NCBI GenBank assembly: GCA_018175075.1
Contig: GCA_018175075.1_4100.1
Source of the DNA: a phage
DNA length: 64,000 nt
Direction: 5' to 3' (one strand)
Positions 1 through 64,000 of the stretch are shown in pieces. The position numbers were made by a program, and so were the translations under genes. Below the pieces are notes generated by a model. That model was not told the DNA's origin and ran no database searches. It saw only the letters and a program-made list of their open reading frames with translations. Within the stretch, counting starts at the first letter, position 1. Each line of letters begins with the position of its first letter.

Positions 1-165
1 CCTATTAGGAGTGGCAGTGTGAATAACAAAGAGTGGGAAGATTACCGCAAGAAGTGCCGAGAGTTTGATAAAGAACTCACAGGTGCAGTGAACGGGGTAA
101 TGTGGGTATCTGCAATTATTGCAGTACTTGGTTTGGGTGCTATTATTATTAATAAATTATTGTAA
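1..165 (+). CDS. hypothetical protein, 3' fragment entering window (hydrophobic C-terminus)
   Basis: open frame from position 1, stop TAA 163-165. Confidence 0.35.
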   Translation, partial: PIRSGSVNNKEWEDYRKKCREFDKELTGAVNGVMWVSAIIAVLGLGAIIINKLL

Positions 166-173
166 GGACTAAT

Positions 174-374
174 ATGTTTACTTTATATCTTGCAGTAGTA
201 CTAACTAATGGTGAAATCACTCGCACCGTTGGTGAAGGTGTATATAAAACACCTGATCAGTGTTACTCTGTAACTCATTGGCCTCGTGATGCTGGTGATG
301 AATCTCGCACTGAATACAAATGTATGAAGGTTAAAGGTGACTTTGTAAATCTAAAGGTTATTGAGACTAAGTAA
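174..374 (+). CDS. hypothetical protein, 66 aa
   Basis: ATG with AAGGA RBS about 7 nt upstream. Confidence 0.5.
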   Translation: MFTLYLAVVLTNGEITRTVGEGVYKTPDQCYSVTHWPRDAGDESRTEYKCMKVKGDFVNLKVIETK

Positions 375-892
375 TGGATATTAATGAGTTGTTGAAATTA
401 GTGTTTAATCGTGAACGCCGCGATACAAGACCAATTGAATATCAAGATGTGATACGCATTGAAACTGATTTCTGTTATGGTAAAACAACTCATGACCTTT
501 TGAATCTCTCTGGAAAACGCTATGCTGATGTTTGTTTTTCAGAGAGAAGTGATGGTTCGGAAATAACGAGTACTGATATTGTTTGTTACGCACGCAGTGC
601 TGATAAATCTTATGAAATAGAACTTATATATTCCCCTAGTTCTAAAACAAATCATCACCGCCATATTTTATATGATGTTTACACACCACCTGGTATTGCT
701 GAATATTTTGTTATTGATTATAGTACTGAAGAAAATGTGTTTCAACAAAGTTTGATTCATAACTTTGAGGTGAATGATCCATTAGTACCAAAGTTGTTCA
801 AACTACTTGACACCATAGATGTTGATTTTGAATTTGTTATGTGCATTAGAACTTCTTTATTCAATGAATTCATGGAACTTTTTAATATATGA
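374..892 (+). CDS. hypothetical protein, 172 aa
   Basis: ORF; start overlaps upstream stop (TAATG). Confidence 0.55.
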   Translation: MDINELLKLVFNRERRDTRPIEYQDVIRIETDFCYGKTTHDLLNLSGKRYADVCFSERSDGSEITSTDIVCYARSADKSYEIELIYSPSSKTNHHRHILYDVYTPPGIAEYFVIDYSTEENVFQQSLIHNFEVNDPLVPKLFKLLDTIDVDFEFVMCIRTSLFNEFMELFNI

Positions 893-1110
893 ATAGATAC
901 TATGTTGTGTATGAACACGTCTCTGAATTTAATAACATACGCGGGTTTTCCAGAGTAGTCACCAAGATGGATGTATTCATTCGTGCTCTTAGTGAAGTAG
1001 ATGCACTGTTTAAATTGTTTGATGAAATTACAAAGTATAACACACCTAAAACACACCGCTATGTGGAAACTGTACATAGCATTATGCTAACTGAAAGTGA
1101 TGAGGAATGA
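889..1110 (+). CDS. hypothetical protein, 73 aa
   Basis: ATGA start/stop overlap with upstream gene. Confidence 0.5.
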   Translation: MNRYYVVYEHVSEFNNIRGFSRVVTKMDVFIRALSEVDALFKLFDEITKYNTPKTHRYVETVHSIMLTESDEE

Positions 1111-1113
1111 TAA

Positions 1114-1332
1114 ATGAATTTATATCTAGTTGAAGGTTTAGTACAAGTCTATAAACCAGAAGGTGAAGGTCAACGTTTTTCACACGTAGAAGAATTTAAG
1201 TACGTTGTACAGGCTGATGGTCAGTACGATGCGGAAATTCAAGTAGATGAATCATTCCGTAAGAAAAATGAAATTGGTAAATTTCAATACCAGAACTTAC
1301 AATATAAAGTATGGCCTAGTATAAATGACTAA
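1114..1332 (+). CDS. hypothetical protein, 72 aa
   Basis: ATG with GAGGAA RBS. Confidence 0.5.
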   Translation: MNLYLVEGLVQVYKPEGEGQRFSHVEEFKYVVQADGQYDAEIQVDESFRKKNEIGKFQYQNLQYKVWPSIND

Positions 1333-1540
1333 GATGTGGTGGTGTCATGGTGTATATAACGTGTATGTAAATGGTAGATATAAAATGTCTAGTACCTATG
1401 CAAGACGTGTTAATGCGAACAACCAAGTTGATGCTGCTTGTGAGATCATTGAGTGGTATGCTGAGTTCAATGCACCTGACTATATGTACGAAATAGTTAC
1501 AATAAATGTTGTACAAATCGATACATCTTTGATACAATAA
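1325..1540 (+). CDS. hypothetical protein, 71 aa
   Basis: ORF overlapping upstream 3' end; start uncertain (alternative ATG at 1334). Confidence 0.4.
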   Translation: MTKMWWCHGVYNVYVNGRYKMSSTYARRVNANNQVDAACEIIEWYAEFNAPDYMYEIVTINVVQIDTSLIQ

Positions 1541-1572
1541 CCACATCAAAAAAATTGCATCTGAGGATACTT

Positions 1573-62046: not shown

Positions 62047-62204
62047 TGGTTTTCATTAACATATCTGACCAACTCGATACTAAACTAGAAGTCGAGCAGA
62101 GTGAGGGATGGATGTTGTACTTTCTTGGAACTTCTCATCAGAATTTTTATATCCATGAACACATAGTTGCACTCACAAATCTAATAAGGGATAAATGTAA
62201 ATGA
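62046..62204 (+). CDS. tandem family 2 small protein, short member (52 aa)
   Basis: TAATG coupling; LGTSHQNFY motif; below track size cutoff. Confidence 0.4.
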   Translation: MVFINISDQLDTKLEVEQSEGWMLYFLGTSHQNFYIHEHIVALTNLIRDKCK

Positions 62205-62458
62205 AACACTTGACGAACGATGAATATTCACTTAGAATTCGAAAGCTCACCCCAGAAGCAAGAGTAATCTACGATGACGATGCACTTTCATGGAACGAGA
62301 TGAAAGTTAAAGTTCATGAGCTATGGTTGCTGTACTTTGTGGGAACCCAATATCAAGAGAAATATTGTACCGATTATCTTGAACAACTAATGGATCTTAT
62401 ACAGATAAAACTAAATGAACGAATTGTGGAAAAATATGAAAACTTTATCAAGCTCTGA
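62201..62458 (+). CDS. tandem family 2 small protein (C-terminally extended)
   Basis: ATGA coupling; VGTQYQEKY motif; runs past the usual stop position. Confidence 0.5.
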   Translation: MKHLTNDEYSLRIRKLTPEARVIYDDDALSWNEMKVKVHELWLLYFVGTQYQEKYCTDYLEQLMDLIQIKLNERIVEKYENFIKL

Positions 62459-62687
62459 GTATCAAGCCGCCCTCTTCTCTATTCTTAACACCCTTAGAAA
62501 AAACTATGCATTACATGGTGCACCTGAATTGGATGTTATCAACGGTGATGTTTATCTTATGAAATTCATTGGAACAAACTATCAAGAACTGTTCATTCTA
62601 CGATACCTATCAGCATTAAGAAACCAAATCCAATATAAAACCGTCAAGGCCAAAAAAGAATGGAATAAACAATGCGACAAAGACTAA
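62436..62687 (+). CDS. tandem family 2 small protein
   Basis: start set at MKTLSSSEYQ; IGTNYQELF motif. Confidence 0.5.
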   Translation: MKTLSSSEYQAALFSILNTLRKNYALHGAPELDVINGDVYLMKFIGTNYQELFILRYLSALRNQIQYKTVKAKKEWNKQCDKD

Positions 62688-62923
62688 ATCACAAAATGTA
62701 TTGTAAACTATTGCAGACACTGGCACAGAAACACTATGACACTGTATCTGAAATATTACCCTATGATATCATGCGTTTAATTCATAGTGAGGCAGAGATG
62801 CTTGTACTGATGACAGGCACTGATAAAAAAGCAATTGCCAAATCAATAGATATGTTCATCGAAGCACAATGTCAACACATTAGAACCGAGATATGGAGAC
62901 GAGAGAATGATAACACTAAATGA
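62672..62923 (+). CDS. tandem family 2 small protein (divergent)
   Basis: overlapping start; MTGTDKK in place of GTNYQ. Confidence 0.45.
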   Translation: MRQRLNHKMYCKLLQTLAQKHYDTVSEILPYDIMRLIHSEAEMLVLMTGTDKKAIAKSIDMFIEAQCQHIRTEIWRRENDNTK

Positions 62924-63122
62924 GTTTCAGTATCATTGGAGGTTACAAGCTATAAGAAGGAAAGTTGTTAGTATTTCTTTAGACAAGTCTATTGCACAAG
63001 AGGACAAATGTGTTATAATAGCTGAAATGAAGTTGGGTGCTTTCGTAGGAACAAACTATCAAAACATCTACACTGACGTATTGTTAAGTGCCTTACGTAA
63101 CAAGGTGATATCTAAAGAATGA
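62907..63122 (+). CDS. tandem family 2 small protein
   Basis: overlapping start; VGTNYQNIY motif. Confidence 0.55.
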   Translation: MITLNEFQYHWRLQAIRRKVVSISLDKSIAQEDKCVIIAEMKLGAFVGTNYQNIYTDVLLSALRNKVISKE

Positions 63123-63337
63123 GAAAATTACAAGGCTTTGAATACATCAGACTCCTGAAAACATGTGCCAACAGAAGAGTAAAGATTCAATCTGATAAGA
63201 GCATCCCTGCCAACCTAAAACATGCAATGGTAGCTGAACTCTATGCAGGGGCACTCATAGGGACAAACTATCAACAAATGTATATAGACATGTGGGTTGA
63301 TGCATTAGTCAAGGTGACCCAAAGTAAATGCAAATGA
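63119..63337 (+). CDS. tandem family 2 small protein
   Basis: ATGA coupling; IGTNYQQMY motif. Confidence 0.55.
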   Translation: MRKLQGFEYIRLLKTCANRRVKIQSDKSIPANLKHAMVAELYAGALIGTNYQQMYIDMWVDALVKVTQSKCK

Positions 63338-63546
63338 TTAATTTAAGTAAAGATGAATATTATGAACGTCTTGCAAAAACTTATCCAGCACGTAACGCCG
63401 TTTATAATAGTAACATTATTGAACGCTCAAAGAAGTTGATTGTAGTAAATGAGATTAAGATGCTTTCAGTCTTAGGAACAAACTATCAAGAGAATGCTGT
63501 ACTGTTGTTAATTGATGCCCTCCAGAGAGAGATACAAAGTAAATGA
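63328..63546 (+). CDS. tandem family 2 small protein
   Basis: overlapping start; LGTNYQENA motif. Confidence 0.55.
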   Translation: MQMINLSKDEYYERLAKTYPARNAVYNSNIIERSKKLIVVNEIKMLSVLGTNYQENAVLLLIDALQREIQSK

Positions 63547-63791
63547 TTCATTTATCTTACCATGATTATCAAAAACGTTTAAATGCATCAAGGGATATAA
63601 GGATTCAAATCTTCAATAACAAAAAATTGAAACCTGACACCAGAAGAATCAAAATGATAGAAGCAGAGTTATGCAACTTCCTGGGGACGAACTATCAGGC
63701 AGGTAAGGTAAAAAACTATCTTAGAGAACTAATGATTTGTATCGAAAATAAATGTGAGGTTGATGAACATGCAAATGATCAATTTAAGTAA
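63543..63791 (+). CDS. tandem family 2 small protein
   Basis: ATGA coupling; LGTNYQAGK motif. Confidence 0.55.
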   Translation: MIHLSYHDYQKRLNASRDIRIQIFNNKKLKPDTRRIKMIEAELCNFLGTNYQAGKVKNYLRELMICIENKCEVDEHANDQFK

Positions 63792-64000
63792 AGATGAATA
63801 TACCGAGCGTATGACAAAAATTACGCACAAACGTAATACAATCTATCACAACCCAGAAATCCAACACAGTAAGAAAATGATTATGATGCGTGAGTTAAAG
63901 ATGGGTGTATTCTTAGGAACAAACTATCAAGATACAGAAGTAAATCGCTTAATCGCGGAGTTACTACTGGAAATCAAAGGTAAGCTGTACTTTCATCAAA
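63769..64000 (+). CDS. tandem family 2 small protein, 3' truncated by window end
   Basis: MQMINLSKDEY N-terminus nearly identical to 63328 gene; LGTNYQDTE motif; no stop before 64000. Confidence 0.5.
   Translation, partial: MQMINLSKDEYTERMTKITHKRNTIYHNPEIQHSKKMIMMRELKMGVFLGTNYQDTEVNRLIAELLLEIKGKLYFHQ

Follow-up and report, generated by a model that had tools for sequence, protein, structure and literature searches.

The palindrome AGTACT is strongly over-represented and selected at the DNA level in a clade of jumbo phages of Enterobacterales

The palindromic hexamer AGTACT is present 283 times in a 64,000-nt stretch of phage DNA (GenBank assembly GCA_018175075.1, contig GCA_018175075.1_4100.1; hereafter, the window), about 13 times more often than expected. 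This enrichment operates at the DNA level and is selected, evenly spread, clade-specific and fixed on early promoters, with a long form of the word at the genome end. The window shares 80–98% identity with the Asteriusvirus jumbo coliphages PBECO4, 121Q, G17, Sharanji, CRJP21 and fEgEco12 and, judging from this similarity, it is part of an Asteriusvirus (121Q/PBECO4-like) jumbo coliphage. The explanation that we favour, although only tentatively, is that AGTACT is the selected recognition site of a duplex-DNA reader specific to Rak2/121Q-like jumbo phages of Enterobacterales, and that this reader is most probably a dimeric binding protein with a small footprint, encoded by the phage.

Number and distribution of AGTACT sites

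The mean spacing of the 283 sites is 226 bp. Dinucleotide-preserving shuffles of the window (n = 100) contained 22.2 ± 4.8 copies, with a maximum of 33, so that the observed number is 12.8 times the expected one; the z-score under a first-order Markov model is 55. A third-order model predicts 106 copies and the maximal-order model 229, the latter being so high because the 5-mers AGTAC and GTACT are inflated by the hexamer itself. The longer word CAGTACTG occurs 64 times, while 0.9 copies would be expected. A preliminary description of this DNA, made by eye, had reported one AGTACT per 150–250 bp against roughly one per 3 kb by chance. The exact count bears out both the over-representation and these figures. 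The G+C content had been put at about 38%; the computed value is 36.0%.

AGTACT is the sole enriched palindromic hexamer in the window. Twenty-five of the 64 palindromic hexamers are completely absent, although about 127 copies of them would be expected in total. All are G+C-rich, and they include GGATCC, CTGCAG and CCATGG, as well as the GTAC-core words GGTACC and CGTACG. Therefore, the excess of AGTACT is set against an extreme avoidance of palindromes, and the word itself shows none of the depletion relative to Markov expectation that denotes restriction-site avoidance.

The flanks show a symmetric but modest preference (C>T>A>>G at position −1; G>A>T>>C at position +1). Position −1 is occupied by C at 44–46% of the sites and by G at 7–9%, and the C(−1)/G(+1) preference is alike in coding and non-coding sites. 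Only nine sites extend to a palindrome of at least 12 bp, which, together with the modest flanks, indicates that the unit is the hexamer. Few site pairs can form terminator-like hairpins, and the purely structural role once suggested for the word is not sustained by these numbers.

The sites are unevenly distributed along the window, whose main features are the following:

1–60,361, no strand assigned: span of all 283 sites, 185 of them in open reading frames (ORFs) and 98 intergenic or at ORF boundaries
1–20,090, + strand: small and medium-sized genes; ordinary AGTACT density (3.1/kb in genes)
20,097–34,289, − strand: array of RCC1-like paralogues of about 400 aa each; 2.5 AGTACT/kb in genes
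34,300–60,400, + strand: dense zone of tiny genes and many strong sigma70-like promoters; 177 sites (5.0/kb genic, 11.8/kb intergenic)
39,039–60,492, + strand: homologue of the fEgEco12 terminal repeat, to which it aligns; presumed early genes
60,493–64,000, + strand: AGTACT-free tail ('desert 1'), whose start coincides exactly with the right edge of the terminal repeat

Density is about 3.1/kb at 1–34.3 kb, 6.8/kb at 34.3–60.4 kb and zero past position 60,361. The probability of such a 3.6-kb gap at the mean density of the window is 1e-7. The occurrence of the word in promoters (such as AAAGTACTTGCA), terminator stems and genes agrees with the preliminary description, but its spread over the whole window does not. 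That description also made no mention of the restriction to a clade, the fixed placement on early promoters, the connection to the terminal repeat, the tail devoid of sites or the regular spacing. The arrangement of these regions follows from the record of fEgEco12, which contains an exact direct terminal repeat of 20,993 bp corresponding by alignment to 39,039–60,492: in the window, the right end of the unique region comes first, the terminal repeat second and the left unique region last. Experiments have demonstrated a repeat of this magnitude in the related phage CBB (PMC5259590).

Pressure on DNA within genes

Sites in ORFs amount to 3.4/kb, about ten times the expectation, and those between ORFs to 9.6/kb. 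Codon-position analysis showed that all three reading frames carry the word: AGT-ACT in 85 cases, xxA-GTA-CTx in 64, and xAG-TAC-Txx in 36. When the protein is kept fixed and codons are drawn from their usage outside the sites, 34 ± 6 coding sites would be expected versus the 183 observed; synonymous shuffling yields 53 and codon-order shuffling 26. For the dipeptide Ser-Thr, the codons are AGT-ACT in 85 of 155 cases, while about 15% would be expected (P = 1e-30). Moreover, the dipeptides able to host the word are themselves 1.6–1.9 times in excess (Ser-Thr, 155 vs 91; Val-Leu, 167 vs 105; Gln-Tyr, 61 vs 32), and the reversed dipeptides show no excess. The use of all frames, along with these shifts in codons and dipeptides, points to a pressure on DNA that is strong enough to alter proteins.

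These data bear on the possibility that AGTACT has no function and just results from biased mutation, repair or gene conversion, from repeats, or from codon and dipeptide usage. An artefact of codon or dipeptide usage was discarded on the grounds of the three shuffling nulls (26–53 sites vs 183), and the excess is found in every frame and in non-coding DNA. Repeats account for a part of the sites: 59 of the 283 have a flank twin (at least 70% identity over 40 nt), mostly in promoter and terminator families, and the existence of such repeated promoter, terminator and paralogue contexts is what a by-product would entail. However, the other 224 sites lie in unique contexts, and the expansion of a repeat family or of a dispersed repeat element (REP/MITE-like) was rejected for this reason.

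Repair can also inflate a word, as Vsr repair does with CCWGG in E. coli. The 18 one-mismatch neighbours of AGTACT are present at 0.9–2.0 times their expectation (for instance, AGTATT at 1.6x and AATACT at 1.2x), with the exception of AGGACT and AGTCCT, which are not the transition neighbours of C/G expected from deamination repair. The mild enrichment of neighbours (1.2–2x) is as would be seen around a word with high turnover, in agreement with a by-product, but none of the 18 is depleted in the expected way. This lack of a source-sink signature counts against a Vsr-like repair drive, and repair-driven inflation was discarded. Helical phasing of site pairs was also rejected, since the peaks at 20–24 bp stem from the promoter families and no general periodicity exists.

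Conservation and spacing

Conservation of the sites was assessed by comparing the window with fEgEco12 (91.5% identity over 50 kb), using control hexamers as background:

Window 34–60 kb: 162 of 169 AGTACT sites conserved vs 84% of control hexamers (P = 1e-6)
Window 1–20 kb: 36 of 54 AGTACT sites conserved vs 45% of control hexamers (P = 0.001)

In the dense zone, the per-base substitution rate within sites is about 4-fold lower than in their flanks. The spacing of the sites is also more regular than random. Between positions 60 and 345 kb of fEgEco12, the coefficient of variation (CV) of the gaps is 0.885 (0.999 ± 0.037 if random), the longest gap is 1,976 bp (random median, 2,877), and 13 1-kb bins are empty whereas a Poisson distribution predicts 26. 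In the dense zone of the window the gap CV is 0.766 versus 0.992 ± 0.074. Heterogeneous mutation would lead to the opposite, that is, to over-dispersion, and coverage itself thus appears to be selected.

AGTACT is therefore kept by positive or purifying selection at the DNA level. Positive selection had already been proposed in the preliminary description, and it is upheld by the use of all frames, the dipeptide shift, conservation above background, even spacing and the backdrop of palindrome avoidance. Since two blocks of the same genome, served by the same replication machinery, lack the word, a functionless by-product is further disfavoured and can be considered largely excluded.

Distribution among phages and the host factor SlmA

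The complete genome of fEgEco12 contains 977 AGTACT sites in 353.7 kb, while 111 would be expected. The terminal repeat contains about 6.5/kb, and the modules for structure, replication and accessory functions 2–3/kb. Graded relatives were collected according to the identity of their major capsid protein, and the observed/expected ratio was computed for each locus. All ten loci with at least 90% capsid identity are enriched (3.2–7.1x), as is the single relative at 72% identity (3.1x), whereas in the 27 relatives at 64–69% identity the ratio is scattered around 1x. Values for other phages and for the host are:

RaK2 (Klebsiella): 125 AGTACT vs 11 expected (11x)
CBB (Pectobacterium): 266 vs 15 expected (18x)
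PA5oct (Pseudomonas): 1 vs 14.6 expected (15-fold depleted)
T5 (E. coli): 12 vs 17.5 expected (0.7x)
E. coli K-12 (host): 3 in 50 kb vs 4.8 expected

Enrichment in the Rak2-like phages of Enterobacterales (fEgEco12, RaK2 and CBB) thus ranges from 9x to 18x, and word density is 45–90 times higher in phage than in host DNA. PA5oct does not differ from the enriched phages in G+C content, and T5 shares the host of the coliphages and also possesses a terminal repeat. This pattern indicates that the trait arose in Rak2-like phages of Enterobacterales and is not general to coliphages. Only about one third of the CBB proteins are common to Asteriusvirus (PMC5259590). Flanking preferences vary within the clade, being A..T in CBB and C..G in RaK2 and Asteriusvirus.

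The restriction of the enrichment to phages of Enterobacterales, and its reversal in a Pseudomonas relative, would suit a host factor. The sole known candidate is SlmA, which phage DNA could recruit or titrate, blocking division. AGTACT occupies positions 4–9 of the SlmA site GTGAGTACTCAC, in which A4 and G5 are required, as are G1, T2 and a purine at position 3 (PMC3020112). The central hexamers of both sites are identical, both share a 6+6 palindromic architecture, and the host range of these phages matches the bacteria that carry SlmA. In addition, cells infected by Sharanji, a close relative, filament and their DNA is dispersed through the cell (PMC11895373).

However, AGTACT only fits the core of the SlmA site (A4 G5 Y6 / R7 C8 T9) and not its outer part (G1, T2; A11, C12; purine at position 3). 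There is not a single full site in the window, fEgEco12 or CBB, and GTR flanks on AGTACT are 2–6 times rarer than composition predicts (6 vs 16.5 in the window, 31 vs 59.5 in fEgEco12, and 3 vs 17.5 in CBB). The favoured outer flank is TTC, and the outer half-sites of these phages are TTC (or NCC; A in CBB) instead of GTR. Identity with the SlmA site was rejected on the basis of these flanks. Besides, T5 lacks the enrichment in the same host, and no SlmA homologue is encoded by the clade. Finally, flanks differ between phage genera even though SlmA is conserved, a drift that a conserved host protein would explain less readily than a reader carried by the phages and evolving with them. A role for SlmA is consequently very unlikely. 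A BLAST search of a synthetic TTCAGTACTGAA concatemer against E. coli genomes was uninformative.

Promoters, terminators and the genome terminus

About 45 sites are located at fixed positions on the −35/−10 elements of early promoters in the terminal repeat, which belong to three sigma70-like families:

41,141–41,173 (example), + strand: class 1, AGTACT fused to the −35 element (AGTACTTGCAA - 16 nt - TATAAT)
50,043–50,070 (example), + strand: class 2, TTGACA - N9 - AGTACTG - TATAAT, the word spanning about −19 to −14
47,221–47,256 (example), + strand: class 3, cAGTACTaTTGACAtagtttgatAGTACTGGCATAAT, with the −35 element between two sites at a distance of 22 bp

The window contains 23 class 1 matches to AGTACTTG[AC] and 19 class 2 matches, in which AGTACTG-TATAAT or AGTACTGG-CATAAT places the word directly upstream of the −10 element. 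Class 3 comprises six promoters, the remaining five being at 47,513, 50,348, 50,610, 54,750 and 58,378. A protein bound to AGTACT at these promoters would overlap the contacts of RNA polymerase. With respect to classical operators, AGTACT resembles them in its fixed position relative to −35/−10 (23 sites at the −35 element, 19 at the −10 element and six promoters with a pair) but not in its extension: an extended site of 12–20 bp confined to regulatory DNA is not what is seen, given the nine long palindromes and the 185 sites in genes. The exception to this short format is a 16-nt unit found eight times at the genome terminus. T4-like late promoters (TATAAATA) show no association with AGTACT.

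As a separate observation, the AGTACTTGCAA-type promoter and its conserved 5' leader (GTTTTACATC...), exemplified at 41,125–41,200 of the window, are present as a single copy in several unrelated coliphages of about 145 kb and also in records labelled as Campylobacter phage. This suggests either that promoter-gene cassettes have been transferred horizontally or that those records are contaminated.

Terminators on the − strand between the RCC1-like paralogues consist of GCCAGTAC(T)...(A)GTACTGGC stems and a subsequent T-run, for instance:

33,078–33,097, − strand: GCCAGTACT-ca-AGTACTGGC, whose two stem arms each contain AGTACT, and then TTTTATTTTT

The word is also found around the left boundary of the terminal repeat, near 39,039:

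38,770–40,700, no strand assigned: non-coding zone across the left end of the repeat, with 19 AGTACT sites

Eight of these sites are inside the 16-nt unit (T)ATGATTCAGTACTGA, which appears in both orientations. The zone also harbours an array of GGATGGCT/AGACGGCT/AAACGGCT units with an 8-bp period (39,816–39,943), four GATTTTGGGCGTA repeats and several G+C-rich hairpins, and had no match in Rfam or tRNA scans, like the rest of the window. A function in the control of the terminus, packaging or the origin is probable.

The Chi octamer GCTGGTGG is also abundant in the window, with ten copies on the + strand (13407, 39627, 46595, 50854, 51364, 52315, 53563, 55911, 57319 and 59122) and five on the − strand (27458, 27716, 27971, 39615 and 46533), about 0.2 being expected on each. 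Chi is concentrated in the terminal repeat, and 10 of the 24 + strand copies of fEgEco12 are likewise in its 21-kb repeat. This orientation suits the entry of RecBCD from the right end of the genome.

Another possible role of AGTACT is in packaging or protection: the terminase, or a nuclease moving along the DNA, would read the dispersed word as a phage-specific, orientation-free analogue of Chi or uptake sequences, and phage but not host DNA would be packaged or spared. The large difference in density between phage and host DNA, the even coverage with no long gaps, and the longer form of the word at the physical end of the genome agree with this idea, and the accumulation of true E. coli Chi sites in the terminal repeat indicates that the phage exploits such words. 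Against it, nothing ties the terminase or any nuclease to AGTACT, fixed genome ends imply a specific cutting site, and the fixed positions on promoters are left unexplained. Furthermore, 14 kb of fEgEco12 that lack the palindrome, described below, are still packaged. We regard this role as improbable.

AGTACT-free blocks and the absence of ACT

The tail of the window (60,493–64,000) is a tight array of about 14 overlapping paralogous genes of about 70 aa, and is more divergent between relatives (78–90% identity) than its surroundings. It contains no AGTACT but eight copies of TGTACT, an excess that is partly due to paralogous contexts, and its content of CAGT and TGGT is low. The tail is without enrichment, yet AGTACT is not significantly depleted in it with respect to chance. 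A foreign origin was rejected, since this native paralogue array is confined to this phage group.

In fEgEco12 there are two long AGTACT-free stretches, both just beyond the terminal repeat, at 20,857–26,615 and 29,016–37,646; the next largest gap is 2.0 kb. The first one is the counterpart of the tail of the window and shows no trinucleotide ban, which means that it is simply devoid of enrichment. The second one, which falls outside the window, is different: between 29,020 and 37,311 the trinucleotide ACT is absent from the + (sense) strand for 8,293 bp and about 21 genes. Mean ACT frequency in fEgEco12 is 20.4/kb, and the run is as long as 169 mean spacings; the longest run free of any other trinucleotide reaches at most 23 of its own. 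None of the frames contains ACT, AGT (equivalent to ACT on the opposite strand) is normal, and the share of ACT among Thr codons falls from 43% to 2%. The same ACT-free run is found in 121Q (161,804–169,313; 7,511 bp), at only about 77% identity to fEgEco12. No known function was found for the genes of this block.

Within the ACT-free run, AGTAC is present at its usual frequency, followed by A in 46 cases, C in 3, G in 2 and T in none. AGTACA reaches 5.3/kb in all three frames, a 7-fold enrichment. Its density is kept between lineages while the sites turn over (17 of 39 conserved vs 37% of controls). We read this as the AGTACT pressure acting also in this block, where it is overridden by the ban on ACT, with a reader that tolerates a T-to-A change at the outer position. 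Such W tolerance favours a reader of duplex DNA over one of RNA. On a wider scale, AGTACA on the + strand of fEgEco12 amounts to 5–16 copies per 2.5 kb between about 25,000 and 57,000, versus about 1–2 elsewhere, an interval broader than the ACT-free block; from 37.6 kb onwards, AGTACA coexists with AGTACT.

The block resembles mRNAs that evade a trinucleotide-specific RNase, and this leads to an explanation at the RNA level: a sequence-specific endoribonuclease would recognise AGUACU as a signal for processing or decay, and so clear early transcripts, in which the word is densest. The T4 enzyme RegB, which acts at GGAG, would be an analogue. Several facts agree with this view, such as the peak of density among the genes of the terminal repeat, presumed to be early, and the 8.3-kb sense-strand block without ACT, which is the signature expected of evasion of an ACU-directed RNase. 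Enterobacterial toxins of the MazF/PemK family are also known to cleave U^ACU, a sequence contained in AGUACU (PMC10864209). However, UACG is tolerated in the block, so that the known U^ACG/U^ACU specificities do not fit. In addition, the word and its flanks are symmetric, without strand bias relative to transcription outside one zone, and many sites are upstream of transcription starts, at fixed distances from −35/−10. The 7-fold enrichment of AGTACA in the block would not be selected by an RNA reader that requires ACU. An RNA-level signal is accordingly of low probability.

Other genes of the window

The − strand array at 20,097–34,289 consists of about 12 tandem RCC1-like (beta-propeller repeat) paralogues, each gene with its own promoter and terminator. 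One of them contains a repetitive stretch rich in CACCACC (27,453–27,774). These paralogues are labelled 'chromosome condensation' in public records, a label that probably just echoes the name of the domain. The early region (34,300–60,400) codes for a DksA/TraR-type zinc-finger protein, a GNAT acetyltransferase, a protein with a ParE-like toxin domain and an HNH/NUMOD4 homing endonuclease; the remainder of this region comprises about 80 tiny ORFs with no assigned function.

Candidates for the reader

The clade codes for two DNA methyltransferases, a C5-cytosine enzyme and a Dam-family enzyme, the latter probably GATC-like. The C5 methyltransferase is compact and Dnmt3-like, and homologues about 50% identical to it are found in unrelated coliphages of about 147 kb. 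Lost AGTACT sites do not show the signature of 5-methylcytosine deamination, as AGTATT and AATACT are not their main decay products. On these grounds the C5 methyltransferase was discarded as the reader.

These enzymes are nevertheless relevant to the proposal that AGTACT is the target of a phage-encoded modification or nicking enzyme, acting as an epigenetic or self mark that times promoters, discriminates strands or primes recombination-dependent replication. The recognition width is exactly that of a 6-bp palindrome with weak flanking preference, and the even coverage combined with clustering at promoters and at the terminus or an origin-like region resembles the usage of GATC. Besides the presence of the two methyltransferases, this proposal can invoke the tolerance of about 1,000 ScaI/Eco255I-type sites per genome while 25 palindromes are purged, since such sites would be safe if modified. 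Modification, however, explains tolerance and not a 9–18x enrichment. Nothing ties the C5 methyltransferase to AGTACT, the deamination signature is missing, and no nuclease with a matching role was found. For these reasons we consider it unlikely, though it stands first among the remaining alternatives, followed by packaging or protection, an RNA-level signal and a host factor.

We return to the explanation of our choice, a clade-specific protein that reads AGTACT in duplex DNA. A site for DNA binding, modification or nicking had been suggested in the preliminary description, and the marks of selection make this the best class of explanation, but no cognate enzyme or binding protein came to light among the ORFs of the window, the annotated regulators and the methyltransferases. 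The word is kept about every 150–400 bp throughout the genome, at a cost to codon and amino-acid choice, and according to our proposal the reader would therefore selectively occupy phage DNA as a 'self' mark or coat. Accumulation of the reader on the −35/−10 elements of early promoters may then also affect early transcription, in the simplest case as a shut-off, and the clustered longer versions at the genome terminus may serve as high-affinity entry sites. We infer both the identity of the reader and the consequence of its binding.

Several points weigh against this proposal. A Pfam scan of the 148 ORFs of the window revealed no helix-turn-helix, ribbon-helix-helix, methyltransferase or restriction-type domain, save one HNH/NUMOD4, and the 'transcriptional regulators', the zinc-finger protein and the Dps-like protein annotated in a relative gave no informative Pfam match. 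A bare 6-bp specificity is more typical of enzymes of the restriction-modification type than of classical repressors, and about 185 sites lie within genes, where promoter control is irrelevant. The two gene blocks without AGTACT mean that the word is not needed everywhere. Lastly, the argument by which early promoters would be repressed is a purely geometric one.

A more elaborate version has two parts. In the first, AGTACT would be an orientation-free viral 'self' word whose clade-specific reader tells phage from host DNA and is coupled to early-promoter shut-off and to events at the terminus. In the second, an independent rule, the ban on ACT, would point to a trinucleotide-specific activity that targets nucleic acids and from which the genes of the block have to escape. 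We consider this combination possible but doubtful.

Comparison with known systems

Short words that are many-fold over-represented genome-wide, cover the genome evenly and have a cost in codons or amino acids include Chi (GCTGGTGG, RecBCD), the uptake sequences USS/DUS of Haemophilus and Neisseria, and GATC (Dam/SeqA/MutH). AGTACT shares these traits: it is over-represented in whole fEgEco12 as well as in the coding DNA of the window (977 vs 111 and 183 vs 34, respectively), and its sites are conserved (P = 1e-6 and 1e-3) and regularly spaced (gap CV 0.885 vs 0.999). As with USS/DUS, AGTACT is also paired in terminator stems and, as in the whole group, own and foreign DNA would be told apart. 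In contrast to Chi, USS and GATC, the word is virus-borne, is a perfect 6-bp palindrome and hence has no orientation, and is fixed on promoters.

The logic proposed here is similar to that of TF1 of SPO1 and p6 of phi29, proteins that coat the phage genome and shut off early promoters. In both cases an abundant protein along the genome would have preferred sites at early promoters, in the terminal repeat, and repress early genes. Unlike the proposed reader of AGTACT, TF1 uses hydroxymethyluracil DNA and p6 relies on bendability, with no defined hexamer. AGTACT is also the same 6-bp palindrome, with the same recognition width, as the ScaI/Eco255I-type site. Phages typically purge such sites, as seen in PA5oct (1 vs 14.6), whereas here they are enriched 9–18x.

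No paper describing an AGTACT excess or an ACT-free block in these phages was found in the literature, in which the one AGTACT-rich match merely used ScaI as an assay enzyme, nor were methylome data for these phages found.

Significance

Whereas phages are known for purging short palindromes, the members of this clade, with genomes of 350 kb, accumulate one of them, to the point of altering their proteins. This could bear on how very large genomes are organised, protected, transcribed or packaged without a phage nucleus. The finding also provides practical handles: the approximately 1,000 ScaI sites per genome lend themselves to modification tests, a simple oligonucleotide could be used as bait for the reader, and the AGTACT k-mer signature is diagnostic for the clade in metagenomes. 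The ACT-free block can be tested directly as a lead to a nuclease with trinucleotide specificity, or to some similar activity. If AGTACT is indeed read as a word of self, it would be a viral counterpart of the Chi, USS or GATC systems.

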